DNA of 64,000 nucleotides from the NCBI GenBank assembly GCA_039590195.1, contig JBDHFY010000003.1, forward strand, positions 4,241-68,240. Reading direction: 5' to 3'. A model generated the notes under the pieces. That model saw nothing but the letters and a program-made list of their open reading frames with translations. It was not told the origin of the DNA and searched no databases. Positions 1,494 to 60,779 of this stretch are shown here, in pieces. The stretch is from Gemmatimonadota bacterium. GTDB lineage: Bacteria; Gemmatimonadota; Gemmatimonadetes; Gemmatimonadales; GWC2-71-9. The first letter of the stretch is position 1, and each line of letters starts with the position of its first letter. A program made the translations under genes and the position numbers.

Positions 1494-2267
1494 ATGTCAA
1501 TGGGGATTTCGACTGCGGATCTGATGAAGCGAGATCGAAACATCCTGCTGGCATCGGCGGCAACCGTGTGCGTGCTGTCCTGGCTCTTTCTGGCATACCA
1601 GCACGCATCGTTCGCGTTCGTTCGCCATCCGCTCGGTGCGCCTCATGCCGTGGCGTTCGGGCCGGGCCCGTTAGCGTTGGCGTTCGTCATGTGGATGGTC
1701 ATGATGGTGGCCATGATGCTTCCGCCGGTGATGCCGTGGATCACGCTCTTTGCCACGATGAGCAGGAGTCAAACGGTCGGGGAACAACGGAACATACCGG
1801 TCGTGTTGTTTGGCGCCGGATATTTTGCCATCTGGGCGGCGTACAGCATGGGTGCGGCACTTCTTCAACTGACGCTACAGCAAAGCGATCTGCTGCGGTT
1901 TGTGGAGTTCGACACGGGAGCGCGGGTGGGGGGTGCGCTCATCGTGGTGGCCGGTCTCTTTCAGCTGACGCCTCTCAAGGCGGCGTGCCTCAAACACTGT
2001 CGCACGCCGCTCGGCTACTTTCTCTCGCATTGGCGGGACGGTCCCGTCGGTGCGTTCCAGATGGGGTTTCGCCACGGGGTCTTCTGTGTTGGGTGTTGTT
2101 GGGCATTGATGGGGCTGATGTTTGCGCTCGGTGTGATGAATCTGCTGTGGATGGCGGTGCTGACATTGATGGTCTGCGTCGAGAAGATCGCACCGCGTGG
2201 TCAAGTGCTGAGCCGGGTGTTCGGCTACCTGTTTGTTGGCTGGGGGATGTGGTTGGTGGCGATGTGA
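1494..2267 (+). CDS. DUF2182 family integral membrane protein (predicted metal-binding)
   Basis: 257-aa ORF starting 9 nt after DUF1326. It is multi-pass hydrophobic, with MWMVMMVAMMLPP and CLKHCRTPL / CVGCCWALM Cys motifs characteristic of DUF2182. Confidence 0.7.
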   Translation: MSMGISTADLMKRDRNILLASAATVCVLSWLFLAYQHASFAFVRHPLGAPHAVAFGPGPLALAFVMWMVMMVAMMLPPVMPWITLFATMSRSQTVGEQRNIPVVLFGAGYFAIWAAYSMGAALLQLTLQQSDLLRFVEFDTGARVGGALIVVAGLFQLTPLKAACLKHCRTPLGYFLSHWRDGPVGAFQMGFRHGVFCVGCCWALMGLMFALGVMNLLWMAVLTLMVCVEKIAPRGQVLSRVFGYLFVGWGMWLVAM

Positions 2268-8870: not shown

Positions 8871-8898
8871 CCAGCTCCCAGCTCCCCGCTCCCCGCTC
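8871..8898. repeat. Heptamer tandem repeat (CCAGCTC x2, CCCGCTC x2)
   Basis: Four phase-consistent 7-mers between the convergent kinase (stop 8854) and the CPBP gene (stop 8908). Confidence 0.7.
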
Positions 8899-27221: not shown

Positions 27222-27241
27222 GTTAGCCTCCTCGCCCTGAT

Positions 27242-27275
27242 CCCCCCCATCCCCCCCCCAAGAGGTCACCCACCC
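27242..27275 (-). other. G-run cluster (G-quadruplex-type motif) on the sense strand just upstream of the DUF362 RBS
   Basis: The minus strand reads GGGTGGGTGACCTCTTGGGGGGGGGATGGGGGGGATCAGGGCGAGGAGGCTAACATG. That gives four or more G3+ runs within ~35 nt, ending ~20 nt before the ATG at 27221. Confidence 0.5.
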
Positions 27276-28934: not shown

Positions 28935-29147
28935 GGTGTCTCAGGGGAATAACAGTTCCAACAACTGTAATCATGTAGGATACGTGAGCCGTCCGCGAGG
29001 GGTGGGTGCGGTGATCACCAGGCCGGAACAAAGGGGAGGGAGGAGCCAGGAGACAGGAGGATAACAGAATGCTTTCGTTCACATTGCCGGCAAATATGGC
29101 TCGGCACCCACGCAGTGACACATCGGCGGCGCATGTAAGCAAGAGCT

Positions 29148-29175
29148 GCCGGCCGCTGGCAGCCGGCCGCCGGCA
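29148..29175 (+). repeat. Heptamer repeat GCCGGCC GCTGGCA GCCGGCC GCCGGCA (GCYGGCM family)
   Basis: Four phased 7-mers immediately 3' of the cheR-like stop (29195). The outer arms GCTGCCGGC...GCCGGCAGC can pair, and the array is followed by CCCTTTTC. About 23 nt are identical to the reverse complement of 32495-32517. Confidence 0.7.
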
Positions 29176-29194
29176 GCCCTTTTCACGGCCGGAC

Positions 29195-30010
29195 TCAACA
29201 TTTCCGATAAACCCCCGCCTCCCCCACCCACTCCTCCACGCCGCCGGCCCCGTCGGTCAGCGTTTCCTTGAAGCCAATCACCAGCGCACCACCGGCCCGG
29301 AGCGTCGCGAGCACTCGCTCCAGCGTCTTGAGCTGTGCGGATGGATCGAAATACGTAAATGCCAGGTTGCGACAAAGGACGAGATCGAACGGTCCGTCGG
29401 GTGTGCGCGTGCGGATGTCCTGTACGTGAAACTCGACCGGCTTGCGGAATGCCGCGCGAATCACGTACCACTCACCGGAACGGGTAAAAGCAACGTCGAT
29501 CCAGTGTGATGGCAGCTCTTTCAGACTGCTCTTGCGGTACTGACCCGTGAGGGCCCGGTCCAAGAGTTGTTCGTCAATCTCCGTAGCGACGACGTGAAGC
29601 CGTAGAGCAGGGAACCGCTCCGCCAGCTCGAGCTTCCACAGCATGTTCAGGCTGTAGGGCTCTTCCCCTGACGCACAGCCTATGCTCCAGCAGCTGAGTT
29701 CCGTATCACCGCGCGCCTCCGCCTCGGACGCGAGATGCGGCAGGACCTCGGCGGCAAGCCGGTCGAACACTGTTCGGTCGCGCCCAAATCGGGAGATGGA
29801 GATCCGGCAAAACGAATCCAAGACGCCCCACTCATCGGGGTGTGATTCGAGGTAGGTGCGATACGCCGCCGGGTTTGGCAGGTGGAGCTCCTGCAAGCGG
29901 CGGGCGATGCGCTTGCACACCTGATGATGCACCCGCCGAAATCCCTCCCAGTGGAGGTGGAGTCTGGGAAGCGCCCACTTAAGGAATTCAACGCACGCCG
30001 AAGCAGCCAT
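29195..30010 (-). CDS. CheR-type SAM-dependent protein-glutamate methyltransferase-like protein (orphan)
   Basis: ORF 29195-30133 trimmed to MAASACVEFLKW... Motif LSCWSIGCASGEEPYSLNMLW (CheR SAM pocket, cf. R(I/V)WSAGCSTGEEPYS), plus FDLVLCRNLAFTYF. No other che genes lie nearby. Confidence 0.75.
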   Translation of the reverse strand: MAASACVEFLKWALPRLHLHWEGFRRVHHQVCKRIARRLQELHLPNPAAYRTYLESHPDEWGVLDSFCRISISRFGRDRTVFDRLAAEVLPHLASEAEARGDTELSCWSIGCASGEEPYSLNMLWKLELAERFPALRLHVVATEIDEQLLDRALTGQYRKSSLKELPSHWIDVAFTRSGEWYVIRAAFRKPVEFHVQDIRTRTPDGPFDLVLCRNLAFTYFDPSAQLKTLERVLATLRAGGALVIGFKETLTDGAGGVEEWVGEAGVYRKC

Positions 30011-30050
30011 GTCTCCTGCAACATGACAGCCCCGGCCTTGTGCGACTACT

Positions 30051-30245
30051 CCCCCCCACACCCCCACCCCTCCCGCTGCCCGCTGCCGGCTGCCGGCTGC
30101 CGGCTGCCAGCCGCCGTTTCCGTGGCAAACCACCTCTCACCTCTCACGTCTCACCTCTCACCACCTCTACACCCTACACCCTACACCCTATTCCCTAAGC
30201 CCTAAGCCCCAAGCCCCAAGCCCCAAGCCCCACGCCCCAATCCCT
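30051..30245. repeat. Mosaic array of ~25 phased heptamers (C-runs; GCTGCCG x6; CACCTCT x4-5; ACACCCT x3; AAGCCCY x6...)
   Basis: Read directly: gctgccc gctgccg gctgccg gctgccg gctgcca gccgccg tttccgt ggcaaac cacctct cacctct cacgtct cacctct caccacc (tct) acaccct acaccct acaccct attccct aagccct aagcccc aagcccc aagcccc aagcccc acgcccc aatccct. The array lies in the divergent region between the cheR-like gene (start 30010) and the lipoprotein gene (start 30403). Confidence 0.85.
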
Positions 30246-30402
30246 ATACCGACTCGCTCTATCGACATTGTGAGATAGATTGCGAATTCAGTGATGCGGC
30301 CGGATCATTGTGTCACATCGCGGGTAACAGATTCGTTCCACGATAGAGGCGACAAGCCCGCGATCTAGCCAGCCCTTTCTCCTCCTTTGGGGGCGCGCGA
30401 TC

Positions 30403-30843
30403 ATGCGTTCTTCGTGCCGAACGGTTCGTGCAAAGAACCCTTGGCTCTTCCGAGTTCGTGACCTTGTTTTGACAAGTTGTGTCCTGGTCACGGCGTTCTT
30501 CGCGTGCACCCCTGAGCCCACGGGTCCCGGCCCCCCGGGCGTGCTCCACGCCGTGCTCACCTCCCCGGCGGGCGCCGAGGGTGCAGCCGTACTCGAGCTG
30601 ACCAGCGCCGGATTGGGAGAGGTCACGCCCGTGGAGGGAAGGGTGTTTGCAAGGCAGGGAGCCGGCGTAGTCACGCTTATCATCATTCTCGATGAGCCGG
30701 GCGAGATCACCTTTCGTGTGAGCGTTGCCGATATCCGCTCGCCTCCCACGGTGACGGTGCTCGAGGTCGCCGACGGCGACGACCAGTTGAGAGCATCGCT
30801 CGAAGGCTACGAGGTGCAGTTTGACCTCGAGGAGACCTTGTAG
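30403..30843 (+). CDS. Hypothetical lipoprotein
   Basis: 146-aa ORF. Lipobox LVTAFFAC followed by a Pro/Gly linker (TPEPTGPGPPG). No recognisable family. First gene of a three-gene plus-strand operon. Confidence 0.55.
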   Translation: MRSSCRTVRAKNPWLFRVRDLVLTSCVLVTAFFACTPEPTGPGPPGVLHAVLTSPAGAEGAAVLELTSAGLGEVTPVEGRVFARQGAGVVTLIIILDEPGEITFRVSVADIRSPPTVTVLEVADGDDQLRASLEGYEVQFDLEETL

Positions 30844-30847
30844 CCAT

Positions 30848-32482
30848 ATGCCCCTTCCCATGAAGGTCCTGCAACCCTCTACCCTGATAACCGTTGCCGG
30901 TCTGCTCACGGTGTTGCCGCGGCCGGTGTACGGCCAGGATATCGAGATGACGGCACACGTGATGGGTCAGCAGGTCCCGGCCGAGTACTACCAGATCATC
31001 CAACGGCAACCCGATTTCTTCGAGGTCAAGCGCGGCTGGATCGGCAAGCTCGAAAACGCACCAGTCACGGGCACGCTGCCCATGGTGATTGTGCAGGCCC
31101 TCTTCGGTGATTCGCCGGAACCTCGCTTCACTCGTGAAGAAATCCAGCAGGTGCTGTTCGACGGACCGGCGCCGTACGGGACGCTCACCGATTTTTACGA
31201 TGAGGTGTCGGGTGGACGGCTCACGGTGGAGGGGCAGGTGCTCCCCTGGGTGCGCACCGAGATCACGCTGGCCGCGACACAAGGTGGTGCGCGGATTGGG
31301 GATGGGACCCCCACTTACATGGAGCAGGCGCTGAGGGAGGCCGACAGCTTCACCGATTTCGGGCAGTTCGACAACGATGGGCCCGACGGTCTTCCGAACA
31401 GCGGTGATGACGATGGGCACGTTGACGCCCTGGCCTTTCAGTACATCGAGGAAGCGGCATCGTGTGGGGGTCCCGCTCCCTGGCCCCACCGGTCGCGCAT
31501 CTCCAATTGGACGGGAGATCCCTTCGCCACCGATGACCTGCGACCGAACGGCGAACCCGTTTTAGTCAATGACTACATCATGCAGAGCACGGTCACGTGC
31601 GAAACGCTGGAGCTCCTGAACGCGAGCGTTGTCGCCCACGAGATGGGACACATGCTGGGCCTCCCCGACCTGTACGACAACACGGAGGGTTCGCTGCCGG
31701 CGTTTCGCGCCTGGGTGGCCGGCTGCTGGTCGTTGATGGCTGGAGGCACGTGGGGTTGTGGTGACGGCAGCGCCAGGACGGTGACGAGGCGCCCGCCGCA
31801 CATGGGTCCGTGGGAGAAGAGCGAGCTGGGGTGGCTGTCCGAAGAGCAAGTGGTGGGGGAGGGGCTGAATCAGGAATTCGTGCTCGAGCCGGTGATCACG
31901 TCGGGGAAGGTTCTTCGGGTACCGCTCAGCGACAGTGAATACTTCCTTGTCGAGTTTCGCGAACGCGCGGGGTTCGATCAGGATCTTCCGCTCCCCGGCG
32001 TGTTGGTCTACCACGTCGACGTCAACCGACCGCGACGGCCGTGCCGCTCATGTGAGAAGATCTATCATGTGCACGTCGTCGAGGCCGACGGGGACGAGGC
32101 GCTCCTCCGCAGCTCATTCGACGGCGGTGATCGGGGCGTGCCGGGAGATGTCTTCGGGGCATCAGGCCCGCAGCGATTGTCCAACGTGACGACGCCCTCC
32201 ACCCGGCTCCACTCGGGCGCGGCGTCGCCGGTGACGTTCTACTCGATTTCACTCGAGGATGGTTTGGCGAGAATTGTGTTGTCGACCACCACCCTTTCTC
32301 TCGAGCAGCTCCTCAGCCCCTTCACCGACGGAGGAGGTCTGCTGCTCTCGGTGCAGGAAGCCGAGTGCCTCGATTCACTCGGTAATCACAACGGCCATTA
32401 CGACGTGGGTGACCTGCGCCGGTATCTCAAGGAGCACCCGTCGGTGGTGGTGGCGGCTGGGCAAGTCGGGGGGCAACGGTGA
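30848..32482 (+). CDS. M6-family (immune inhibitor A-like) zinc metalloprotease
   Basis: ORF 30821-32482 trimmed to MPLPMKVLQ... Signal peptide. M6 N-terminal pattern (GTLPMVIVQALFGDSP...TDFYDEVSGGRLTVEGQVLPWV). Zinc site VVAHEMGHMLGLPDLYD. Confidence 0.8.
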   Translation: MPLPMKVLQPSTLITVAGLLTVLPRPVYGQDIEMTAHVMGQQVPAEYYQIIQRQPDFFEVKRGWIGKLENAPVTGTLPMVIVQALFGDSPEPRFTREEIQQVLFDGPAPYGTLTDFYDEVSGGRLTVEGQVLPWVRTEITLAATQGGARIGDGTPTYMEQALREADSFTDFGQFDNDGPDGLPNSGDDDGHVDALAFQYIEEAASCGGPAPWPHRSRISNWTGDPFATDDLRPNGEPVLVNDYIMQSTVTCETLELLNASVVAHEMGHMLGLPDLYDNTEGSLPAFRAWVAGCWSLMAGGTWGCGDGSARTVTRRPPHMGPWEKSELGWLSEEQVVGEGLNQEFVLEPVITSGKVLRVPLSDSEYFLVEFRERAGFDQDLPLPGVLVYHVDVNRPRRPCRSCEKIYHVHVVEADGDEALLRSSFDGGDRGVPGDVFGASGPQRLSNVTTPSTRLHSGAASPVTFYSISLEDGLARIVLSTTTLSLEQLLSPFTDGGGLLLSVQEAECLDSLGNHNGHYDVGDLRRYLKEHPSVVVAAGQVGGQR

Positions 32483-33651: not shown

Positions 33652-34770
33652 TCAATAAAGGTGCATCCAGCTTCGCTCGCCCAAGGGGATGGCGAAAGCG
33701 GTTCCCTGGAGCGACTGCTGCACGGCACAGCTCGAGTAGTGAAACTGCGCGTTCCCGCCGATGTCATTTTCGTCATCGAATCCGTTCGCGGCGATCACGG
33801 CACCGTTGAATTTTTGTCCGGTGCCCGTCGTCTTGAACCGTCCGCGTACAATTACGACCCCAAAGAATTCGAAGTTTCCCGCAACGCTGAGGTCGCCATC
33901 GACGAGAAGCAGACCCTGACCCTGCCGGCCATTGATCCTCGCATCTCCCGAGATGTAGATGGTGGGGAAGTACTTGCCGCATGCAGAAGAGGGGTCTTTT
34001 CCGTCACCCCAGTTCTGGGGATCAGCGAGGTTGCATTGGGTGCCGACGAAGCTGGGCTGGATCTGAGTGTAGGTGCCCGGACCCAGTGCCGTCGTGGCAA
34101 TCGCTGCCAATGCGTCGAAGTTGTCGTCGCCGAAGGTTGTCAGGGCGGCCTCGTCGATCGTCGCATCGCCGAGAACTGGGGGAACACCATCTAGCTCGTA
34201 AGAGTTGCCCGAGGTGCTGATGTTGGTAGCATCGTCGACCAGGATCCCTGGGAGCGAGGTCCCAAGCGGAGGACAGTCGGACCACCCGGGCGGCAGGTGG
34301 TCGTGGCCGTCGATGTCGGAGTTTCCGCGGACCCTCACATCTCCCTTTGTCTTGAACGCCGCATCGATGTCGATCTCGAAGGGACGGAGGCGAGCCAAGA
34401 GCCCTACATGTTGGTGTGTCGAGGAGTCCGCGCTGAAGCCCTGCGCGTCGACCAGGTACAGCATGGTGTTCATGCGGCGCAGGGTGCGCCGGTACCAGCC
34501 GGTGCCATCGTCCATCCACCCCTCGTCGGTGAGCGTCGAGCCGGCGGCGATGCTGTTGTACCGGAAGGCATCCCAGTCCGCCAAGAGATATTCAGCGGCT
34601 CCGTCCGCCGTGTTAAAAGCGTGCTGTGCCTTGACGGTGCTGCGTCCCAACCGCTGCTCCTGCATCCCGACGAAGAAAGCGCCGGAAATCAACCCGCCGA
34701 TCAGCAGAAGGGCGAACACGGCGGTCACCAGCGCTACACCGCGTTCATCCGTTCGGTTTGCCATCATCAT
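33652..34770 (-). CDS. PilX_N-type pilus assembly protein, paralog 2
   Basis: ORF 33652-34812 trimmed to MMMANRTDERGVALVTAVFALLLIGGLISGAFFVGMQEQRLG, the PilX N-terminal domain pattern (ERG.AL + hydrophobic helix, no G/F cleavage site). Clearly paralogous along its whole length to 35691-36833. Confidence 0.7.
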   Translation of the reverse strand: MMMANRTDERGVALVTAVFALLLIGGLISGAFFVGMQEQRLGRSTVKAQHAFNTADGAAEYLLADWDAFRYNSIAAGSTLTDEGWMDDGTGWYRRTLRRMNTMLYLVDAQGFSADSSTHQHVGLLARLRPFEIDIDAAFKTKGDVRVRGNSDIDGHDHLPPGWSDCPPLGTSLPGILVDDATNISTSGNSYELDGVPPVLGDATIDEAALTTFGDDNFDALAAIATTALGPGTYTQIQPSFVGTQCNLADPQNWGDGKDPSSACGKYFPTIYISGDARINGRQGQGLLLVDGDLSVAGNFEFFGVVIVRGRFKTTGTGQKFNGAVIAANGFDDENDIGGNAQFHYSSCAVQQSLQGTAFAIPLGERSWMHLY

Positions 34771-34852
34771 GGACTCAGCTCGCTCGAGGGCTCTAGCTCG
34801 CCCGCGCCCCAAGTCCGTGATCGAGCAACCACTTGGGGCAGTGAAGCTCCGA

Positions 34853-34887
34853 GCTGGCAGCTAACAGCTAATAGCTGTTAGCTCCTC
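34853..34887. repeat. Heptamer repeat GCTGGCA GCTAACA GCTAATA GCTGTTA GCTCCTC forming a palindrome (possible terminator/attenuator)
   Basis: The centre TAACAGCTA-T-TAGCTGTTA is a perfect 9-bp inverted repeat. It is located between the REC-HTH regulator stop (34890) and the PilX-like paralog 2 start. Confidence 0.65.
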
Positions 34888-34889
34888 CC

Positions 34890-35489
34890 TCATGCGTTGA
34901 GATGATAACTCTTGATCTTCTTGATTAACGTCGTCCGCGCAATCCCGAGTTCGCGCGACGCGTGCGTGCGATTGCCCCGGTGATGTCGCAGGACCTCTTC
35001 GATGTGCTCGCGCTCGAAGTCATCGAGCGTACGGGGAAGGTGATCGGCCTCTGCTGCGACACCGGCGAGATACTCACCGCTTCTCCGCTGCTCGAGCTCG
35101 GCCTCCAGCGTTGCCAACTGATTCTTCAGTAGCTCTCGTTCCTCGGCTTGACGAATGGTGAGCGCCAGCTGGTCCGGGCGGAATGGTTTGGCGAGGTAAT
35201 CGTACGCACCCCACTCCATCGCCTGAATCGCGGCGTCCTCATCCGAGTATGCGCTCATCATGATCACCAGCGCTGCGCCGCCCGCTGACTTGTAGCGACG
35301 CAGGAAGTCAGGACCCGTCAGGTCCGGCATCTGGACGTCGCAGAGGATGAGGTCGAAAGGCTCGTGTGTCGCCAGGTTGAGCGCCTGGACGGGGGAGCCT
35401 TCTGCCTGCACGTCGTGTCCATCGAACTTGAGCAGACGGACGAGAGAATCTCTGAGACCAGGGTCGTCGTCAATGATGAGGAGTTTCAT
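34890..35489 (-). CDS. Response regulator, REC + Fis-type HTH, lacking the sigma-54 AAA+ module
   Basis: 199-aa ORF. By eye, its REC domain is about two-thirds identical to the REC of the NtrC-type regulator at 38627-39982 (MKLLIIDDDPGLRD...PFDLILCDVQMP...GGAALVIMMSAY...GAYDYLAKPFRPD). The coiled linker (LATLEAELEQ) joins directly to the HTH (NRTHASRELGIARTTLIKKIK). It has no Walker A and no GAFTGA. Confidence 0.85.
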   Translation of the reverse strand: MKLLIIDDDPGLRDSLVRLLKFDGHDVQAEGSPVQALNLATHEPFDLILCDVQMPDLTGPDFLRRYKSAGGAALVIMMSAYSDEDAAIQAMEWGAYDYLAKPFRPDQLALTIRQAEERELLKNQLATLEAELEQRRSGEYLAGVAAEADHLPRTLDDFEREHIEEVLRHHRGNRTHASRELGIARTTLIKKIKSYHLNA

Positions 35490-35690: not shown

Positions 35691-36833
35691 TCAGTATAGG
35701 TTCACCCAACTTCGCTCGCCGAAGGGAATCGCAAGTGCGGTTCCCTGGAGCGAACGCTGAATGGCGCAGCTCGAGTAGTAGAGTTTCGCGTTTCCAGCGA
35801 CGTCGTTGAGTCCGTTGCCGTTATTGGCGGCGATCACCGCGCCGTGGAACTTCTGGCCGGTCCCCTCCGTCGAGAACCGTCCGCGCACGATGATCACGCC
35901 GAAGTACTCGAAATTGCCCTTTACCAAGAGGTCGCCGTCCACGAGGAGGAGGCCCTGGCCCTGCCAGTTGCGGACCTCTGCGTCCCCCTTGATATGCGTG
36001 ATAGGGTAGTACGTCCCGCAAGGCGATAACGGGTTCTGCCCGTCGCCCCAGTTCTTGGGATCCGCGAGATTGCATTCGCCGCCGACCAGGCTTGGCTGAA
36101 GCTGAGCGTACAATCCAGGAGCCAGCACCTTCGTCGCCTCGGCGGCCAGGGCATCAAAGTCGGTGTCCCCAAACGTGGTGAGCTCGGCTAGGTCGATCTC
36201 CGAATCTTCGTCGATGCGCGGGTTGCCGTCGATGATGTGTGCCCCACCTTCTTCTGTGACGTTCGCCATATCGTCCACCAGCAGTCCGGGAGCCCCAGCA
36301 TCGAGCGAGGGGCAATCGAGCCACCCGGGCGGCGTGCGATCGTGGCCATTTATTTCGGACTGTCCACGAGCCTTCACGTTGCCGCGCGTCTTGAAGGCGG
36401 CGTTGGCGTTGACTTCCACCAGATTGAGCCGGGCCAGGAGGCCGACGTGTTGCTGTGTCGAGCTGTCCGCACTGAAGCCCTCCACCTCGACCAAGAACTG
36501 CATCGTGTTCAGCCTGCGTAGCGTGCTGCGGTACCAGCCCGTGCCGTCGTCCATCCACCCATTCTGGGTGAGTGTCGAGCCGATCTGGAGGTTGTTGTAC
36601 CGAAACGCATCCCAGTCCGCCACGAGATATTCAGCGGCTCCGTCGGCTGTGTTAAAGGCCTGCTGCGCCTTGAGCGTGGTGCGGCCCACCCGCTGCTCCT
36701 GCATTCCGACGAAGAAAGCGCCGGAAATCAACCCGCCGATCAGCAGAAGGGCGAACACGGCACCAGCTAGGGCCATACCGCGTTCGTTTCTTCGGTTCGC
36801 CATCATCGGACTCCTTCGCGGGCTGTTCGTCAC
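35691..36833 (-). CDS. PilX_N-type pilus assembly protein, paralog 1
   Basis: 380-aa ORF whose ATG overlaps the PilW-like stop (ATGA). An internal MMANRRNERGMALAGAVFALLLIGGLISGAFFVGMQEQRVG is an alternative start (36806). The C-terminal region is conserved with paralog 2 (GQGLLLVDGDL.V.GNFE.FGV.IVRGRF.T.GTGQKF.GAVIAAN). Confidence 0.7.
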   Translation of the reverse strand: MTNSPRRSPMMANRRNERGMALAGAVFALLLIGGLISGAFFVGMQEQRVGRTTLKAQQAFNTADGAAEYLVADWDAFRYNNLQIGSTLTQNGWMDDGTGWYRSTLRRLNTMQFLVEVEGFSADSSTQQHVGLLARLNLVEVNANAAFKTRGNVKARGQSEINGHDRTPPGWLDCPSLDAGAPGLLVDDMANVTEEGGAHIIDGNPRIDEDSEIDLAELTTFGDTDFDALAAEATKVLAPGLYAQLQPSLVGGECNLADPKNWGDGQNPLSPCGTYYPITHIKGDAEVRNWQGQGLLLVDGDLLVKGNFEYFGVIIVRGRFSTEGTGQKFHGAVIAANNGNGLNDVAGNAKLYYSSCAIQRSLQGTALAIPFGERSWVNLY

Positions 36834-45897: not shown

Positions 45898-45931
45898 CGA
45901 CGCCTCCTCGACTGTTTCTCTCTCAAACGTC

Positions 45932-45973
45932 TGGTGCAGCTAACAGCTAATGGCTAACAGCTAGCAGCTGCAT
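45932..45973 (+). repeat. Heptamer repeat TGGTGCA GCTAACA GCTAATG GCTAACA GCTAGCA GCTGCAT
   Basis: Six phased 7-mers filling the gap between the class-A-like gene stop (45973) and the upstream gene start (45897). Confidence 0.7.
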
Positions 45974-46983
45974 CACGGATTAAAGAGGAAATAATCGTGG
46001 ATTGCTCTTGCGATATGGGCTATGGCCAGCTCGCGTTCGGACCCTTCGAGATCTGACTCCTTGACGAGCACCACCGTCACGACATGTCCGGCTTCGTTGG
46101 GAAGCGTGACGATGCCCACGTCGTTGGTGGTACCACCGATCGTTCCGGTCTTGTGAAAGACTTCCGTGTCCGGCGGCAACAGGCCCTTGATCCGCGCACG
46201 TCCGGTCGTGCTTCGTCGCATGATGTCCAGCAGTAGGTCGGAGCTCTGCTCACTGAGAATCTCCTTGCGCCAGATGCGCGCTAGGAGATCGGCCATGGCG
46301 TGCGGCGTGGCCGTATCCCGGGTATCTCGCTCGAACGCCTCGCCCGCTCGTTCCCTCACCTCATCCGGAATGCTGTCGGCGAGCTCGGAGAAATCGTGGG
46401 GCGTCACGTCACCGCTGGGTGGCAGGCCCTCCACGCCGATCCAGTCGCCGATCAAATGGACCGTTGGCCGATTCACGTCGATACCATCGATGCCGAGGGC
46501 TCGCATCCTGGCCGTCACGGCCTCCCCTCCACCGGCGGCGGTGAGAACCATGTCCGTTGCCGAGTTGTCACTGATGAGAAGCATGAGTTCAGTGAGATTT
46601 CGCAGCGAGAGGATGACTCCGGGGTCGTCGAAAAGTCGAGAGAGTGTTCCGCTTCCTGGATGCAGGTCGACCTGCCGGACCTCTATCATGGAGTCTAGGC
46701 TGATCTCGCCCGCGTCAACGCGGGTGAAGAGTTGCACGGCTATGGGCACCTTGTAGGTACTGGCCATGCCGAATCGCTCCCCGCCGTTGTGAGACACACG
46801 TCGCCCCGTCTCGAGGTGGATGGCCGCCACCCCGACCGGTCCTCCCGCCAGCTCGGCAAGCCGGGCGATTTCCGCTTCCAAATGTTGCAGGTGCGGGTCG
46901 GTCTGTGCATCGAGCGGTGTGGAGGGCAGGGCCACCGCAATGCAGATGTACGTAGCAGCGAGCAACTTACTCCGTACGGTCAT
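45973..46983 (-). CDS. Class A beta-lactamase-family serine hydrolase
   Basis: 336-aa ORF with a signal peptide. All three class A motifs are in order: STYK (SxxK), SDN, KTG (FHKTGTIGG). Confidence 0.8.
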   Translation of the reverse strand: MTVRSKLLAATYICIAVALPSTPLDAQTDPHLQHLEAEIARLAELAGGPVGVAAIHLETGRRVSHNGGERFGMASTYKVPIAVQLFTRVDAGEISLDSMIEVRQVDLHPGSGTLSRLFDDPGVILSLRNLTELMLLISDNSATDMVLTAAGGGEAVTARMRALGIDGIDVNRPTVHLIGDWIGVEGLPPSGDVTPHDFSELADSIPDEVRERAGEAFERDTRDTATPHAMADLLARIWRKEILSEQSSDLLLDIMRRSTTGRARIKGLLPPDTEVFHKTGTIGGTTNDVGIVTLPNEAGHVVTVVLVKESDLEGSERELAIAHIARAIHDYFLFNP

Positions 46984-47035: not shown

Positions 47036-47185
47036 CGGCGCGCGCGTGAGGGAGGTCGCGCCTCAGGTCCTCGGTGGCGCCCGCGACCGGGGCGTCTCCA
47101 CGGAGCGATCTCCCCCCGCGCGCGCCCTGAACCGGAAGCTGAACGCCGGGGTGGGCACCTGATTCACAACCGGGTGCCCGCTTTG

Positions 47186-47213
47186 CTAAGCCCCAACCCC
47201 TAAGCCCTGAGCT
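47186..47213. repeat. Heptamer repeat TAAGCCC CAACCCC TAAGCCC TGAGCTC
   Basis: Four phased 7-mers of the C-rich class overlapping the 3' end and stop of the racemase-family gene. A GGGCACC...GGTGCCC hairpin lies just upstream (47155-47180). Confidence 0.55.
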
Positions 47214-48321
47214 CCTCCGAGCGCACCGTCAGCTCGTCGACGCGGGCGACGTCCACCGTGACTCCGATGCCCGGCTTGTCCCGTGGCACGGACACCATCC
47301 CCTGCGCGGTCATGGTCCATTCAGGTGTCACGATGTCACGCGCCCAGTATCGAGCGCTTGGGCTCAGGTCGCCCGGCAGCGTGAAATTGGGCAGTGATGC
47401 AAGCGACACGTTGTACGCTCGTCCCACTCCGCTCTCCAGCATGCCGCCACACCACACGGGAACGTCGTGGTGTGCACAGAGGTCGTGGATAGCCTTGGAC
47501 ACCGTGATGCCGCCGACCCTTCCGGGTTTGATATTGATGATCTTGCCGCTGCCAAGGGTGATCATGTCTTGCGCCCTGGCCACGTTCGTGATCGACTCGT
47601 CGAGGCAGATCGGCGTCTTGAGCCGTCGTTGGAGTTCGGCGTGTTGCACGACGTCGTCCCACGCGAGAGGCTGCTCGATCATCAACAGGTCAAATTCGTC
47701 GAGTCGAGTCAAATGATCGAAATCGTCGCGCGTATAGGCGTTGTTGGCGTCGGCCATCAGCGAGACGACTGAGCCCAGCTCCTCACGGACCGCGCTGACG
47801 TACTCCATGTCCGAGCCCGGAGCGATCTTGATCTTGATCTTGCGGTAGCCCGCCTCGTGTGCGCTGCGCGCCTTTTCCACCAACGCGGCGGGGCTCGGCT
47901 GGATGCCGAGAGATATGCCGGTGCCGATCTCCGTGCGTGTTCCGCCAATGAGTTCGGACAGGCTCATGCGCCGGCATTCTGCTTCGAGGGCCCACATGCC
48001 CATCTCCACTGCGGCCTTCGCCATGTTGTGACCTCGGAAATCTCGTTCCAAGACATCATGCACCTGAGCCGCTCGTTCGAAGGCTACGCCGAGAACCCGC
48101 GGTGCTACCCATAGAGAAATGGCTAACCAGGCGGTGTCGATGGTTTCGGGAGAGTAGTTGGGCTGCTCATCCGCTACGCACTCGGACCAAGCCGTGCGGC
48201 CGCCGGCGTCGTGGAGTTCCAGCAGCAGAATCCTCCGGACGCTCAACGTCCCTGAGGAGATCTTGAACGGTTCGCGGAGCGGGAGGTGGATTTCGCGGAG
48301 GGTAAGGCGTTCGATTCTCAC
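47200..48321 (-). CDS. Enolase-superfamily o-succinylbenzoate synthase / N-acyl(succinyl)amino acid racemase family protein
   Basis: 373-aa ORF with a GTG start. MLE-subgroup catalytic pattern KIKIKIAPG (KxK), MADANNAY (D), MIEQPL (E), CLDES (D), NIKPGRVGG (K). Confidence 0.8.
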   Translation of the reverse strand: MRIERLTLREIHLPLREPFKISSGTLSVRRILLLELHDAGGRTAWSECVADEQPNYSPETIDTAWLAISLWVAPRVLGVAFERAAQVHDVLERDFRGHNMAKAAVEMGMWALEAECRRMSLSELIGGTRTEIGTGISLGIQPSPAALVEKARSAHEAGYRKIKIKIAPGSDMEYVSAVREELGSVVSLMADANNAYTRDDFDHLTRLDEFDLLMIEQPLAWDDVVQHAELQRRLKTPICLDESITNVARAQDMITLGSGKIINIKPGRVGGITVSKAIHDLCAHHDVPVWCGGMLESGVGRAYNVSLASLPNFTLPGDLSPSARYWARDIVTPEWTMTAQGMVSVPRDKPGIGVTVDVARVDELTVRSEELRA

Positions 48322-49686: not shown

Positions 49687-50538
49687 TTACTGGCGCTCGA
49701 GGAGATAGAAGCCACGATTGCCCTTATCCAAGTGGAAACCCTGAACTTGGTACCCCTTTTCCAGGTACCAGAGAAACGCTGTCCTGGTCGTCCTGCGCCA
49801 GGCATTGGCGGATTCCAAGGAGACGGACTTCACACGCTGGATGTCTCCCGGAATCTCGATCCTGACCGACGCGTGAGTGGGTAATGTCGTTCCCGCCGGC
49901 AGGGGCTCCCCTTCGCTGTTGGTGTTCACGACCGCCACCTTGCTGAATTCGGGTCGCGGCGAAGCCCGGGAGCCGGCCAGTGATTGCTCGACCCGAGGAT
50001 GGTTAAAATCCCATCGAACGACGAACCGATCGGTGCCCAGCCCGCTGTGGAGATCGCTTCCCGTGTCGTCACCGTACATTTCGGGGACGTACTCGACGGG
50101 GAGCGCTCCGAGGCGGTTGACATTGAGATTGGCGTTGCGGGCTTCGAGGGGGTCGTACGTCCAATAGGCAACCTCGACACCGCGGCTGAGCAGAAGCTGG
50201 CGTTGGTACTCCTTGAGGCGTCGTCCCAAACCTGAGCCCTGAGCTTCTGCTCGGACCGCCAGCATGTGAGACCAGTGTGCAGGTTGGCCGTCTCGGATTC
50301 CCGTCAAGCCGAACACGAATCCGATGAGCTGACCGCTACCGTCGAACGCCCCGGCCGCGATCCCCCCCGCCTTTTGGCTAATCATGAGGATGCTGGAGGG
50401 AACACACTCGGTGAATTCCTGGCCCCAGGTATCGCGTTGGAGCGCCTTGCATTGTTCGTAATCATCAAACGAATGGAATTCGCGGAGCGTCATGCCGTGG
50501 AATGAGGTGGACGAAGAGGTTGATGAAGGCGGTACCAT
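49687..50538 (-). CDS. GNAT-family acyltransferase (two-lobed, COG3375-like)
   Basis: 283-aa ORF whose ATG overlaps the upstream transporter TGA (ATGA). Acyl-CoA pocket-like segment HMLAVRAEAQGSGLGRRLKEYQ (Q/RxxGxG/A). Confidence 0.65.
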   Translation of the reverse strand: MVPPSSTSSSTSFHGMTLREFHSFDDYEQCKALQRDTWGQEFTECVPSSILMISQKAGGIAAGAFDGSGQLIGFVFGLTGIRDGQPAHWSHMLAVRAEAQGSGLGRRLKEYQRQLLLSRGVEVAYWTYDPLEARNANLNVNRLGALPVEYVPEMYGDDTGSDLHSGLGTDRFVVRWDFNHPRVEQSLAGSRASPRPEFSKVAVVNTNSEGEPLPAGTTLPTHASVRIEIPGDIQRVKSVSLESANAWRRTTRTAFLWYLEKGYQVQGFHLDKGNRGFYLLERQ

Positions 50539-51644
50539 CAGAGCGACTTCCGAGCCTGCCCTCGCATCTTCCAGATTCCGAGCGTCAGGATCGGCACGAC
50601 AAACACGGCGAGGAAGAACCAGGTAATCGTTCCGTATCCTCTGGCAATGAGGCCGATCAATCCGAATCGGGCGATGATCGAGCCGGCGATGAGGAGACCG
50701 AGCGCGACCGCCGGACGGAGGTAAATGGGCATCGTGACATTCCGTTCACTGAACGCACCGGCGATCCGCTCGTTGAGCCCGTGGATCATGCCTGTGCCGG
50801 TCTCGATGAGCGTTCCGAAGAGCACGATCTGGAATACGAGCTGGAACGCTCGCGAGCCAAGGATGTCCAGCAGGAAGTTGGCAGGAACGGCGTGCTCCAG
50901 CACCTGAGGGTATTGGCCTACCATCGAAAGATAGAAAAGGAAACCTGGAATGATGGCGATTGGGCCCGCCAGAATCCCCGCCGTGACAGCTTCGCGTCGC
51001 GTGTCGACGTGCCGCACGCAGAAGAGCAACGCCGGAATGAGCGAGAGATTGTAACCGGCGTACTTTACGCCACCGACGATCCAACGCGCGCCCGGGGGCT
51101 CGCTGCCCAGGCTCGATACGATGTCGCCGCCAAATCGGCTGAGACACCACACGAAAAAGACGGCGTACACACCGTAGAGCACAAATGACCAGCTGGCCAG
51201 AAACTTCTCGATGAGGCCCGTTCCGCGGAAGACCAGAAAGCCAACAGCCGCCATGATGCCCACGACTCCCAGATCGTGAGGTAGTCCGAAGGACTCTTGC
51301 AGGATGGCGCCCGCGGCGGCCGCAATGACCGCCAGCACCAGGAGAAGCTGGGCGACATACAGCGGCTCGTAGAGAAACCAGCCTCTTCCAAGCAAGTGCT
51401 TGAAGAAGCTGCGATAGTCGTAGCTTCTGAAGAGCCGGGAGAACTCAAAACTAGAGGCGCACACGGCACTCCAGATGGTCGTGGACACCAGAATCATGGC
51501 GAGGAGGCCGCCGAGCGGCCCGTACGTGAGAAAAAACTCCGCCAACTCGCGGCCGGTCCCGTAGCCCCCCGCGATCACCACCGACTGAAACACGAAGCCA
51601 GGCAACAGGTACTTCTGAAAGAACACTGATTTCACCGATTCCAT
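50538..51644 (-). CDS. Polytopic membrane protein, YkvI/amino-acid-transporter-like
   Basis: ORF 50538-52520 trimmed to MESVKSVFFQKYLLPGFVFQSVVIAGGYGTGRELAEFF (GAAGGA RBS). About 11 TM segments. The upstream 292 codons of the track ORF are repeat-derived (PAPPAPP) and non-coding. Confidence 0.6.
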   Translation of the reverse strand: MESVKSVFFQKYLLPGFVFQSVVIAGGYGTGRELAEFFLTYGPLGGLLAMILVSTTIWSAVCASSFEFSRLFRSYDYRSFFKHLLGRGWFLYEPLYVAQLLLVLAVIAAAAGAILQESFGLPHDLGVVGIMAAVGFLVFRGTGLIEKFLASWSFVLYGVYAVFFVWCLSRFGGDIVSSLGSEPPGARWIVGGVKYAGYNLSLIPALLFCVRHVDTRREAVTAGILAGPIAIIPGFLFYLSMVGQYPQVLEHAVPANFLLDILGSRAFQLVFQIVLFGTLIETGTGMIHGLNERIAGAFSERNVTMPIYLRPAVALGLLIAGSIIARFGLIGLIARGYGTITWFFLAVFVVPILTLGIWKMRGQARKSL

Positions 51645-51810
51645 TCCTTCGAGAGGCCGGAGCAGGGGATCCAGCCGGCGTGGAGAGTCCTGCCCCGACT
51701 TGGTGTCATTCCCACAACTACGATCGCAATGGGGTAGCGCCCGCTGCTCGAGCTTGGGCGCGGTCGGTGAGCAATAGCATATCACAATGTAGGGTTTTGT
51801 CCATGTGGGT

Positions 51811-51918
51811 GGAGGGGCAGGAGGGGCAGGAGGGGCAGGAGGGGTAGGAGGGGCAGGAGGGGCAGAAGGGGCAGGAGAGGCAGGAGAGGCAGGAGACGAA
51901 AAGGGGGCAGAAGAGGCA
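51811..51918 (+). repeat. 9-bp tandem repeat GGAGGGGCA (about 12 increasingly degenerate copies); G-quadruplex motif
   Basis: ggaggggca x3, ggaggggta, ggaggggca x2, gaaggggca, ggagaggca x2, ggagacgaa, aagggggca, gaagaggca. It lies in the divergent region between the transporter (start 51644, minus) and the dipeptidase (start 52042, plus). There are seven GGGG runs with 5-nt spacers on the plus strand. Confidence 0.85.
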
Positions 51919-52041
51919 GCAGAAGGTGCCGGGGCAGAGGCGCCAGACGAGCGGTTGCGCTCCGCCGCCGTGCAAGCTAATAGACGCAGAAGAAATCGCC
52001 CTTGCCGCGAGGCATTCGGGCCAACGTCTGGAGAGTGCAAC

Positions 52042-53373
52042 ATGCGACCTGGCGGCTGCGTGCTGGTTATGGCAATGCTCGGCTTCATCCATTCCACCAA
52101 GGCCCAAGAGCCCTGGCCGGAGCCCGGCCCGGAGCTGTTGAGCCGGGCCAGAGCGCTTCTCTCCCAGGTGCCGCTCATAGACGGACACAACGATCTCCCG
52201 TCAACGCTGCTGGAGACCGTGGGCGGCGATTTGAATCGGGCCGACATCGCCCTCCGCCAGCCGCAGCAGTCGGCCGATCTGCCACGGTTGCGGGAAGGGA
52301 TGGTCGGAGGGCAGTTCTGGTCGGCACATGCGCCGGCCGAGACCATGTTCACAGGAGACGCGCTAGCGCGATCCCTCCAGCAGATCGACATGGTCCACCG
52401 CCTGGTGGCGCGATATCCGGATCTGGAGCTTGGCCGTACGGCTGAGGATGTCGAACGGATCCACACGGAGGGGAAGATTGCGTCTATGATCGGGGTCGAG
52501 GGTGGGCACATGATCGACAACTCCCTCGCGGCGCTCAGGATGTTCTACAGGCTCGGCGGCCGCTACATGACGCTGACCCACTTTCGAACCACCGACTGGG
52601 CGGATGCCGCCACGGACGTGCCCCGACATGGTGGGCTCTCGGAGTTTGGTGAAGAAGTCGTACGGGAGATGAACCGACTTGGAATGTTTGTCGACCTTTC
52701 GCACGTCAGTGTCGAGACGATGAGAGACGCGCTCCGAGTTAGCCGCGCGCCCGTGATTTTCTCACACTCTAACGCTCTCGCGGTCAACATACACCCTCGC
52801 AACGTCCCGGATGACGTGCTTGGGATGGTGGCGGAGAATGGGGGAGTGGTGATGGTGAACTTCATCGCCGGCTACGTTCCGCCGACGCCGCCGGAATGGC
52901 GTAGCCTGACGGGCAGCGCCGCGGCAACATTCCATCTCCAGGCAGGGCAATCCGCCGACGAGCCCGTGTGGAACGCCCGCCGCATCGAGGTGGTGGAAGG
53001 GCTTCGGGCGGAGCTGGATGATGACGCGGAGATCACGCGGCGTCTCGCCGAGTGGGTACGGCAGAATCCTCCACCCAGGGGAACGGTGGGGGACGTGGCG
53101 GATCACATCGACCACATCCGGAACGTGGCCGGCATCGACCACATCGGAGTAGGGTCAGATTTCTATGATGCCGGCGGGCCCTCGATGGCGGCCGGCCTCG
53201 AGGATGTCAGCAAGTTCCCCGTGCTGTTCGCGGAACTGTTGCGGCGAGGTTACAGTGACGAGGATATCAAGAAGATCGCCGGCCTAAACATGTTGCGGGC
53301 GATGCGAGAGATGGAACGGGTTGCCCAGGAATTGCGCCGTGACCATGGCCCGTCGCTCGCCGAGCTGCGGTAG
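52042..53373 (+). CDS. M19-family membrane (renal-type) dipeptidase
   Basis: ORF 51805-53373 trimmed to MRPGGCVLVMAMLGF (signal). Signature VPLIDGHNDLP, GGQFWS, IEGGH, MTLTH, VDLSHVS, IFSHSN. Confidence 0.85.
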   Translation: MRPGGCVLVMAMLGFIHSTKAQEPWPEPGPELLSRARALLSQVPLIDGHNDLPSTLLETVGGDLNRADIALRQPQQSADLPRLREGMVGGQFWSAHAPAETMFTGDALARSLQQIDMVHRLVARYPDLELGRTAEDVERIHTEGKIASMIGVEGGHMIDNSLAALRMFYRLGGRYMTLTHFRTTDWADAATDVPRHGGLSEFGEEVVREMNRLGMFVDLSHVSVETMRDALRVSRAPVIFSHSNALAVNIHPRNVPDDVLGMVAENGGVVMVNFIAGYVPPTPPEWRSLTGSAAATFHLQAGQSADEPVWNARRIEVVEGLRAELDDDAEITRRLAEWVRQNPPPRGTVGDVADHIDHIRNVAGIDHIGVGSDFYDAGGPSMAAGLEDVSKFPVLFAELLRRGYSDEDIKKIAGLNMLRAMREMERVAQELRRDHGPSLAELR

Positions 53374-53423: not shown

Positions 53424-53479
53424 GCCGGCCGCCGGCAGCCGGTACCTAACAGCTGACGGCTAACAGCTAACAGCTACAG
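53424..53479 (+). repeat. Heptamer repeat, 8 phased units: GCCGGCC GCCGGCA GCCGGTA CCTAACA GCTGACG GCTAACA GCTAACA GCTACAG
   Basis: It occupies the gap between the convergent dipeptidase (stop 53373) and asparaginase. The asparaginase TAG stop lies inside the last unit. Confidence 0.8.
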
Positions 53480-57052: not shown

Positions 57053-57061
57053 CTAGGGAGC

Positions 57062-57092
57062 GGGGAGTGGGGAGCGGGTACCTCCACTCCCC
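57062..57092. terminator. Hairpin GGGGAGTGG-N13-CCACTCCCC between convergent genes
   Basis: Perfect 9-bp stem within a GGGAGCG/GGGAGTG heptamer context, 10 nt after the fusion-gene stop. Confidence 0.45.
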
Positions 57093-57129
57093 GGCGACAC
57101 GCCGAATGGCGCATTGACGAGGCAGCTGG

Positions 57130-60707: not shown

Positions 60708-60777
60708 GAGAAGGGCGAAGGGGAATCCGTAGGGGCGCAGCATGCTGCACCCCTACCTAATTCCCCTTCTCCCTCTC
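60708..60777. terminator. Long imperfect inverted repeat (about 34-nt arms) between convergent genes; bidirectional terminator candidate
   Basis: gagaagggcgaaggggaatccgtaggggcgcagc-at-gctgcacccctacctaattccccttctccctctc. The central GTAGGGG(C)GCAGC/GCTGC(A)CCCCTAC stem is nearly perfect. The arms are themselves built from G-rich/C-rich heptamers. Confidence 0.6.
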
Positions 60778-60779
60778 CC

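Follow-up and report, generated by a model that had tools for sequence, protein, structure and literature searches.

Gene content of the locus

The DNA analysed is a stretch of 64,000 nucleotides (nt), called the window below, from contig JBDHFY010000003.1 of the Gemmatimonadota bacterium assembly GCA_039590195.1 (positions 4,241 to 68,240, forward strand), with a GC content of 62.5%. It shows a 392-nt spacer between a cheR-like gene on the minus strand and a divergent operon on the plus strand, and 195 bp of this spacer (30051-30245) are occupied by a mosaic of repeats with a 7-nt unit. The mosaic is very probably a compound, imperfect heptanucleotide microsatellite, the largest member of a lineage-wide class of intergenic 7-bp arrays found in uncultured Gemmatimonadota of one clade. 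The starts first proposed for the two flanking genes, 30010 on the minus strand and 30403 on the plus strand, agree with independent gene calls. The genes and conserved segments around the mosaic are the following:

29195..30010, minus strand: gene encoding a CheR-family S-adenosylmethionine methyltransferase (Pfam CheR, 2e-36; gene calls in other assemblies)
30011..30050, minus strand: cheR-proximal conserved block of 40 nt, with AGGAG 5 nt before the ATG
30246..30402, no strand assigned: conserved non-coding block of 157 nt, between the array and the 146-aa gene
30403..30843, plus strand: gene for a 146-aa protein that matches no Pfam family and may carry a lipoprotein signal

The 146-aa gene heads the operon; a Peptidase_M6 gene and a gene encoding a PD40 beta-propeller come after it. 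The CheR-like protein matches Gemmatimonadota metagenome-assembled genomes (MAGs), with 79% identity in contig L001 and 56% in contig L002. Relative to the cheR-like gene, the mosaic has its G-rich strand in sense orientation.

Within the spacer, only 30011-30050 and 30246-30402 are conserved non-coding sequence. L001 and L011 retain the block 30011-30050, and L002 retains part of it. In the other block, the core 30297-30402 hardly varies among L001, L011, L010 and L009, with neighbouring proteins 75-79% identical. The positions located 41-65 nt upstream of the cheR ATG show no conservation whatever. The block 30246-30402 may be a cluster of promoters and operators that serves both divergent genes, and/or part of a leader RNA, as its conservation suggests. 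It carries TGTGTCACA and a distant inverted pair, CTCTATCG/CGATAGAG. Neither a sigma-70 promoter consensus nor an intrinsic terminator was found in 29000-30900, and a covariation analysis of 30246-30405 on both strands gave 0 compensatory pairs among sequences that are too similar to inform.

Four other identities were considered for the array and rejected. It is not coding sequence, neither as an extension of cheR (open reading frame (ORF) 29195-30133) nor as part of ORF 29882-30205: the array is absent or different in the orthologues, all of which align at the ATG at 30010. A known RNA family or riboswitch was discarded: the search of 29900-30500 gave no Rfam match at E≤1, and that of the whole window none reaching the gathering score. 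A mobile element or insertion was also discarded, since terminal repeats were not found and the alignment of orthologues shows colinear blocks in situ. The units CCCTAAG/CCCCAAG recall telomeric repeats, a reading that was set aside because all relatives have the locus in an internal, syntenic position.

Structure of the 195-bp mosaic

Tandem Repeats Finder (TRF) resolves 30075-30244 into four abutting arrays of period 7, and a C-run lies ahead of them. The parts of the mosaic are:

30051..30074, minus strand: C-run block CCCCCCCACACCCCCACCCCTCCC (GGGAGGGGTGGGGGTGTGGGGGGG on the cheR-sense strand), not a heptamer repeat
30075..30116, no strand assigned: sub-array 1, GCTGCCC, GCTGCCG x3, GCTGCCA, GCCGCCG
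30117..30130, no strand assigned: spacer TTTCCGTGGCAAAC, 14 nt, non-repeat, which separates sub-arrays 1 and 2
30131..30165, minus strand: sub-array 2, CACCTCT x2, CACGTCT, CACCTCT, CACCACC
30169..30245, minus strand: sub-arrays 3 and 4, ACACCCT x3, ATTCCCT, AAGCCCT, AAGCCCC x4, ACGCCCC, AATCCCT

The four arrays as delimited by TRF are:

30075-30116: GCTGCCG, 6.0 copies, 88% matches
30131-30162: CACCTCT, 4.6 copies, 92% matches
30162-30190: CACCCTA, 4.0 copies, 95% matches
30193-30244: CCCCAAG, 7.4 copies, 91% matches

The autocorrelation that had been suggested as a check bears out the period. The self-identity of 30051-30245 reaches 0.718 at lag 7, falls to 0.646 and 0.546 at lags 14 and 21, and ranges from 0.31 to 0.39 at other lags; 2000 mononucleotide shuffles give 0.368±0.029 at lag 7, with a maximum of 0.47. 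The region thus shows the head-to-tail 7-nt units, above chance, of the intergenic heptanucleotide simple sequence repeat (SSR) class. The longest perfect runs are AAGCCCC x4 (30204-30231), GCTGCCG x3 and ACACCCT x3.

A preliminary description of this DNA had taken the segment for a mosaic of about 25 strictly phased heptamers, parsed without gaps after the C-run. This parsing is right with some qualifications. Period 7 holds within the sub-arrays, but the C-run and the 14-nt spacer are non-repeat sequence; the phasing is strict within each sub-array, but the register between unrelated units is arbitrary. The 3-nt slip that was described as part of one drifting array can be retained as an alignment, CACCTCT and ACACCCT being best aligned 3 nt out of register, but not as drift, since this offset fits independent origins better than the drift of a single array.

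The sub-arrays differ in their units. Sub-array 1 shows a GC-rich, quasi-palindromic unit with a GCCGGC core. The spacer 30117-30130 aligns to non-repeat sequence in L011 and L001. Sub-array 2 shows the unit AGAGGTG on the minus strand, and a Shine-Dalgarno-like GAGGTG is contained in every perfect unit; in RNA this GAGGUG is a six-base complement of the 16S 3' tail. Sub-arrays 3 and 4 form a single drifting A-N-N-C-C-C-Y series of 11 units, in which the differences between units are confined to positions 2, 3 and 7, and A1 and C4-C6 are invariant. This pattern of variation is the one that a constraint on tracts rather than loops would produce, in what is a small sample.

Heptamer arrays across the window

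TRF finds about 12 period-7 arrays in the 64 kb, of which the mosaic at 30075-30244 is by far the largest. Among the 13 arrays of any period with at least three copies, nine are of period 7, compared with 0.15 such period-7 arrays per dinucleotide-shuffled window; the remaining ones are two arrays of period 6, one of period 9 in coding sequence, and a period-14 row that re-describes the heptamer array at 57035. All the period-7 arrays are intergenic on a crude gene map. The 64-kb window therefore shows many arrays, a preference for period 7 and a non-coding bias. Eight of the nine array loci adjoin a stop codon; the focal mosaic is the only array between divergent starts and sits in one of the longest intergenic regions of the window. 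About 4 kb of further sequence from the same species, mostly coding, contains no new array. The neighbours of the heptamer arrays, which mostly follow stops, include a kinase, beta-lactamase-family genes, an asparaginase, an amidohydrolase and a response regulator.

The same few families of units reappear at unlinked loci. CAGCTAA arrays are located at 34858, 45937 and 53450; GCCGGCAGC-type units are located at five loci (29148, 30075, 32495, 47015 and 53424); an AAGCCCC-like run is also found at 47188, and L001 has a CACYTCT array (CACCTCT-type) elsewhere, past its M6 stop. In the three CAGCTAA arrays (34858-34884, 45937-45969 and 53446-53476) the sense strand reads TTAGCTG, 0-6 nt past the stops of minus-strand genes. 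TTAGCTG in tandem provides TAG stops in all three frames, and two of the three arrays are predicted to fold into strong hairpins (z -3.1 and -2.8). In several of the stop-adjacent arrays the predicted strong hairpin starts directly after the UGA. The hairpins and the palindrome at array loci are:

29130-29195, minus strand: stop-adjacent hairpin, -36.8 kcal/mol, z -2.3
34845-34892, minus strand: stop-adjacent hairpin, z -3.1
45925-45975, minus strand: stop-adjacent hairpin, z -2.8
57045-57100, plus strand: stop-adjacent hairpin, z -2.0
29141..29181, minus strand: heptamer-built, terminator-like palindrome of GCTGCCG/GCGGCCG units, with 20-nt arms that are 85% complementary

The palindrome 29141-29181 starts 14 nt past the cheR stop and shares its unit family with sub-array 1, and the cheR-like gene is bracketed by complementary arrays, sub-array 1 on the 5' side and this palindrome on the other.

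In strand-asymmetric arrays and tracts adjacent to stops, the G-rich strand is the sense strand in seven of seven cases. Five of these are in the window (8871, 47176, 57035, 60711 and 60745), one at the M6 stop of L001 and one at the PPK2 stop of L013; three of the seven are degenerate G-rich tracts rather than TRF arrays, and the one at 8871 lies between two stops. The G-rich arrays and tracts at stops extend over 8871-8898, 47176-47216, 57035-57078 and 60711-60787 in the window, 195-268 in L001 and 5321-5369 in L013. A general G-richness downstream of stop codons was considered and set aside, since the 41 stops taken together show only a weak trend (mean G4Hunter +0.14, p about 0.03).

Only one array with at least four copies in the window is not of period 7. 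It is a 9-mer, (GGAGGGGCA)x9.4, at 51811-51895, and falls in the minus-strand ORF 50538-52520, whose 660-aa product belongs to no Pfam family. The array codes for a (PAP)n linker rich in Pro and Ala; on the plus, antisense, strand it is a strong G-quadruplex (G4) motif.

Comparison with strains of the same species and with other species

The orthologous spacer was recovered from assemblies of the same species and of two further species; identities and counts of single-nucleotide polymorphisms (SNPs) come from contigs compared with the window:

L003/L005 (GCA_039589555.1), same species, 99.55% identity: 392-nt spacer, array identical except for one SNP (CACCACC to CACCGCC), 37 SNPs
L009 (GCA_039591155.1), same species, 99.71% identity: 393-nt spacer, array identical, 8 SNPs
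L004 (GCA_039587735.1), same species, 99.94% identity: partial, starts inside the GCTGCCC array and is identical onward, 6 SNPs
L011 (GCA_039584615.1), about 78% nt identity: 370-nt spacer, block order as in the window, copy numbers differ
L001 (JBDHDY010000127.1), closely related to L011: 279-nt spacer, about six AAGCCCC units

The four same-species assemblies (the window, L003/L005, L004 and L009) show no insertion or deletion (indel) in any heptamer array covered, which are roughly seven arrays at 29041, 29148, 30075-30244, 32488 and 34858. Indels outside repeats are present, of 1 nt at about 30284 and of 13 nt at about 34228, and the L009 spacer differs from that of the window by a 1-nt indel and one SNP, both outside the repeats. 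The copy-number variation among close strains that is expected of a phase-variation locus was thus not seen at 99.55-99.94% identity. Array length, which the preliminary description had proposed to compare between related genomes, is constant among the four same-species assemblies but varies between species.

L011 shows, in order, a C-rich block, about four GCTGCCA-type units, a spacer, about three CTCACCT units, about five CCTACAC units and a short CCCCAAC end. Apart from its AAGCCCC units, L001 shows unexpanded counterparts of the spacer and of the CT-rich stretch, and three of the four sub-arrays are missing. The C-run block 30051-30074 is absent in L001, and L011 has a different C-rich block there. 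Sub-array 1 has about four equivalent units in L011 and none in L001; sub-array 2 has about three in L011 and an unexpanded CT-rich stretch in L001; sub-arrays 3 and 4 correspond mainly to ACACCCT-type units in L011 and mainly to AAGCCCC units in L001. All three orthologues keep at least four C-tracts beside the conserved block. Turnover is also seen at other array sites: at the cheR stop, L011 has a short GGCTG..CAGCC hairpin with a 5-bp stem instead of the heptamer-expanded palindrome of the window, and the spacer between the M6 and PD40 genes in L008 (about 90% identical) contains an array of equal length made of different units. Judged from these alignments, the arrays expand, contract and turn over their units in situ between species and are stable between strains.

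The more distant Gemmatimonadota loci L002 and L015-L020 show no period-7 array, so the density of arrays is lineage-specific; L012-L014, which belong to another lineage, contain one each. A metagenome search for further orthologues gave just two short fragments, both array-free. A copy-number polymorphism of the pure (CGCTTCC)n array of L012-L014 was rejected, because its 4.3, 7.0 and 4.7 copies are truncated by N-gaps and are not evidence. These N-gaps adjoin the heptamer array in L012 (5281-5339) and L014 (about 5396), and several contigs end near the focal array: L004 starts inside it, L010 starts within about 17 nt, and L008 ends about 80 nt away. Such breaks are not evidence of length heterogeneity, since dispersed repeats and G/C tracts can be expected to cause them when assemblies are built from short reads.

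G-quadruplex and RNA structure potential

The minus strand shows canonical G4 motifs at 30051-30081 (G4Hunter -2.96) and 30172-30244 (-2.48), the two strongest in the window, and the placement of both on the cheR-sense strand, already described, stands. The whole window contains 11 G4 motifs, compared with 4.0±2.1 in shuffles. At least four consecutive units with a G-tract of three or more are found in 30172-30244, and 30051-30081 fits the same G3+N1-7 pattern. The motifs of sub-arrays 3 and 4 read (AGGGTGT)n and (GGGGCTT)n on the minus strand, and that of the C-run lies 41-64 nt upstream of the cheR ATG. A further motif, CCCCCCCATCCCCCCCCC at 27235-27259 (G4Hunter -2.88), is located in the spacer upstream of a DUF362 gene, on the sense strand of this minus-strand gene.

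With quadruplex terms included, ViennaRNA predicts a G4 of four layers for (GGGGCUU)4, and G4s of three layers for both (AGGGUGU)n and the G-run. The predicted energy of the G-run 30051-30074 is -18.7 kcal/mol with these terms and -3.0 kcal/mol without them, and that of a putative 254-nt leader changes from -83.0 to -119.2 kcal/mol once they are included. The minus-strand RNA of sub-array 1 (CGGCAGC) is predicted to form a hairpin of -25.6 kcal/mol (z -2.1), and that of sub-array 2 (AGAGGUG) is predicted to be unstructured (-0.1 kcal/mol).

Other features of the window

ORF 33652-34812 (386 aa) and 35691-36833 are neighbouring paralogues with about 72% nt identity and no Pfam family. Their cluster also holds N_methyl (pseudopilin-like) genes, an HTH_8 response regulator, a sigma-54 activator and a histidine kinase. 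In L009 the 13-nt deletion at about 34228 falls in ORF 33652-34812 and the gene calls are split, which suggests a strain-specific pseudogene. Compared with window positions 2032-2136, contig L021 lacks 105 nt, in frame, of the PpoB2-family gene 1494-2267, and L022 is as the window.

Comparison with known heptamer repeats

To our knowledge, bacterial heptamer tandem repeats have no accepted function or origin. The short tandemly repeated repetitive (STRR) sequences of the cyanobacteria Calothrix and Anabaena, known since 1990, are dispersed intergenic tandem heptanucleotides of few unit families, among them STRR1, CCCCA(A/G)T, and STRR3, CAACAGT. The arrays described here are like them in showing tandem heptamers of few families over many intergenic sites. 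They differ in that their host is outside the cyanobacteria, their units do not match exactly, and the arrays are shorter and more degenerate. The CCCCAAG and AACAGCT units are within 1-2 nt of the STRR units, a similarity near chance (an estimated ~0.5 matches at 6/7 for about eight families, all rotations and both strands). With Gemmatimonadota MAGs as the closest genomes and with different units, the arrays are not STRR sequences in the strict sense.

The nearest counterpart in the literature is the class described by Rehm et al. (2015), abundant intergenic G4-forming heptamer SSRs with the unit GGGAATC in Xanthomonas and GGGGA(C/T)T in Nostoc (PMC4692102). These repeats show a preference for about four units and vary between Xcc and Xac at shared sites; within the 50 bp that follow stops the coding strand is the G-rich one, and most of these repeats are transcribed; no link to gene function was found, and phase variation was judged unlikely (PMC4692102). 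As relayed in the same paper, heptamer SSRs were seen in excess in many bacteria by a 2007 survey, large high-GC genomes of non-pathogens contain long SSRs more often, and one hypothesis relates the 7 nt to the stretch of DNA that the polymerase active site holds (PMC4692102). The arrays of the window share with this class a 7-nt unit with one G-tract, the intergenic bias, the presence at many loci, a GC-rich host (as Xanthomonas), array sizes (about four units there, 4.0-7.4 here), no link to a gene class, and length and sequence that vary between related species at the same site; the G-rich coding strand after stops is shared by the stop-adjacent arrays and tracts, the focal mosaic lying between divergent ORFs. 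They differ in the phylum, in the units (CTTGGGG and AGGGTGT, which do not fit the GGGNATC consensus), in showing several unit families, including the G-tract-free GCTGCCG, CACCTCT and CAGCTAA, and in the joining of four families in one 195-bp mosaic between divergent ORFs; moreover, the G4s described here are predictions from sequence and an energy model. Heptamer arrays had been held to be undescribed outside cyanobacteria in GC-rich organisms, a claim that the Xanthomonas case makes outdated; the novelty was overstated because the phenomenon is known in other phyla. A literature search for such repeats in Gemmatimonadota found none.

Other heptamer systems are less similar. In Haemophilus influenzae, hmwA shows (ATCTTTC)n with 13-24 perfect units, at least 11 in nature, and the copy number varies between isolates and within populations and sets expression (PMC8262952, PMC12721329); this SSR is transcribed in a 5' untranslated region (5'UTR) and acts via RNA structure (PMC12721329). 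The focal mosaic is likewise a heptanucleotide tandem repeat upstream of a gene, with a possible 5'UTR mode by analogy, but it is a mosaic with at most four perfect units and no variation among four strains. The TAACTGA direct repeats of Beggiatoaceae, Cyanobacteria and Bacteroidetes, for which MacGregor (2015) proposed a post-transcriptional role (PMC4679880), are also many short intergenic heptamer sets (2-6 copies), and their tandem unit has stops in all frames, as does the TTAGCTG family of the window. However, the unit is different and those repeats sit a few nucleotides upstream of start codons, whereas most arrays here follow stops, and the focal mosaic starts at 41 nt from the cheR ATG. 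Compound or interrupted microsatellites in general resemble the mosaic in their adjacent arrays of different units, drift of units, stabilisation by interruptions and slippage origin; the exclusive period 7 and the units recurring at unlinked loci are unlike them.

Origin and possible role of the mosaic

The best explanation as a whole, held with some confidence, is a lineage-wide class of heptamer arrays of slippage origin, which at this locus would form a slowly tuning leader of the cheR-like gene. Short proto-sequences in the ancestral spacer would have expanded in situ through replication slippage, as the alignments suggest, and the units would then have turned over by point mutation together with duplication and loss. 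Slippage expansion and turnover of this kind would make copy numbers vary between species and not between strains. The cheR-like promoter has about an even chance of lying beyond the array, on its far side (30246-30402), because only 30011-30050 and 30246-30402 are conserved and the former is an unlikely promoter site, being too short for a promoter plus leader. A promoter beyond the array would have the mosaic transcribed, in the G-rich orientation, as a leader of at least 236 nt. In such an RNA the folding model predicts three G4s, one GC-rich hairpin and an unstructured Shine-Dalgarno-like GAGGUG tract; at the DNA level, the G4 motifs would be on the cheR non-template strand. By analogy with other systems, these structures could tune transcription, translation or mRNA stability of the cheR-like gene: a G4 on the non-template strand raises transcription, and an RNA G4 in the 5'UTR raises translation, in T7-based in vitro systems and E. 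coli (PMC11087576). Changes of length during evolution would retune expression slowly, with no on/off switching. The leader orientation agrees with the sense-strand rule at stops here and in Xanthomonas and Nostoc. That the mosaic acts in this way, as a leader tuning cheR-like expression, is a tentative proposal, a little short of an even chance by analogy. The idea that copy number sets the spacing of both divergent promoters is doubtful, since both promoters, if they are conserved, probably lie on one side of the array; with both in the 157-nt block, a change in copy number would leave their mutual spacing unaltered.

Several points weigh against this account. Local slippage leaves unexplained that only period 7 is expanded and that units recur at unlinked loci. 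The placement of the promoter, with no sigma-70-like sequence in 29000-30900, draws on conservation. The GCTGCCG and CACCTCT sub-arrays have no G-tracts, and no individual G4 is positionally conserved, because the cheR-side G-run is absent in L001 and different in L011. Repeats between divergent ORFs are under-represented in Xanthomonas and Nostoc (PMC4692102), so the position of the focal mosaic is atypical, and the base of the census is 64 kb and a few short related contigs.

The neutral alternative is about as likely as action as a cheR leader, with an estimate that runs from rather unlikely to nearly even. It holds that the least-constrained part of the spacer gathered slippage-prone heptamers with no effect on either gene, and it accounts well for the fast turnover between species next to conserved flanks, for L001, which lacks three sub-arrays and has both genes intact, for the location of the largest array, an intergenic region among the longest, and for the analogous Xanthomonas and Nostoc repeats, in which no function was found (PMC4692102). 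It accounts less well for the A-N-N-C-C-C-Y series, in which about seven substitution events avoid four of the seven positions ((3/7)^7, ~0.003, a rough figure as the events are not strictly independent), for the four or more C-tracts kept beside the conserved block in all three orthologues, and for the block order shared by the window and L011; the regularities of strand and position in the class also argue against pure neutrality. These regularities could be taken further, and the heptamer arrays of the clade read as a functional multi-family system rather than slippage debris, in which a lineage-specific mechanism maintains the 7-nt vocabulary, but this is improbable. The source would be a polymerase or repair bias, or a protein reading motifs spaced by 7 nt; after stops the G-rich strand would be in the transcript, where hairpins or RNA quadruplexes would define or protect mRNA 3' ends, and the 195-bp mosaic would be that vocabulary redeployed as a modular 5' leader of the cheR-like gene. 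An array of binding sites for a sequence-specific protein, either a nucleoid-associated protein or regulator on DNA or an S1/Csp/CsrA-type binder on RNA, is quite unlikely. A few unit families at unlinked loci with fixed orientation relative to genes (CAGCTAA at three loci) and invariant positions within units are what such sites would show, and MacGregor (2015) proposed likewise for the TAACTGA direct repeats (PMC4679880); however, the mosaic places four unrelated unit types side by side, copy numbers differ between species, the 7-bp spacing puts successive sites on different helix faces, and a candidate protein was not identified.

Least in keeping with the comparisons are two further explanations. 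The preliminary description took the array for a slipped-strand phase-variation device, in which gain and loss of heptamers would switch the cheR-like gene and/or the lipoprotein-M6 operon within populations. A heptamer SSR in a regulatory region recalls hmwA of H. influenzae (PMC8262952, PMC12721329), one flanking operon encodes probably exported proteins, array content varies between species, and the contig ends in L004, L010 and L008 and the N-gaps at arrays could reflect length heterogeneity. However, these breaks are equally expected from dispersed repeats and the poor short-read coverage of G/C tracts; similar arrays lie beside unrelated housekeeping-type genes, mostly at their 3' ends; and instead of a long uninterrupted single-unit tract the mosaic shows perfect runs of 4, 3 and 3 units, with interruptions of the kind that stabilise SSRs. 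Because the arrays are also invariant among strains that differ by 0.06-0.45% in SNPs and do carry non-repeat indels, phase variation is unsupported and very unlikely. An assembly or sequencing artefact has a negligible probability: such repeats do break short-read assemblies, but three independent full-length assemblies and one partial one show the near-identical spacer of 392-393 nt, and two further species carry related but different arrays at the orthologous site.

Implications

In practice, heptamer arrays fragment short-read MAG assemblies (five assemblies are affected), and this locus should not be annotated as a phase-variable promoter. If the arrays of the clade did form a functional system, systems of the STRR type would extend beyond cyanobacteria, and the positional grammar of this one would be testable for function. 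Gemmatimonadota appears as an additional independent lineage with heptamer arrays, which strengthens the case for a general cause; candidates would be the geometry of polymerase slippage, or a role that G4s and hairpins play as structures where transcripts end.

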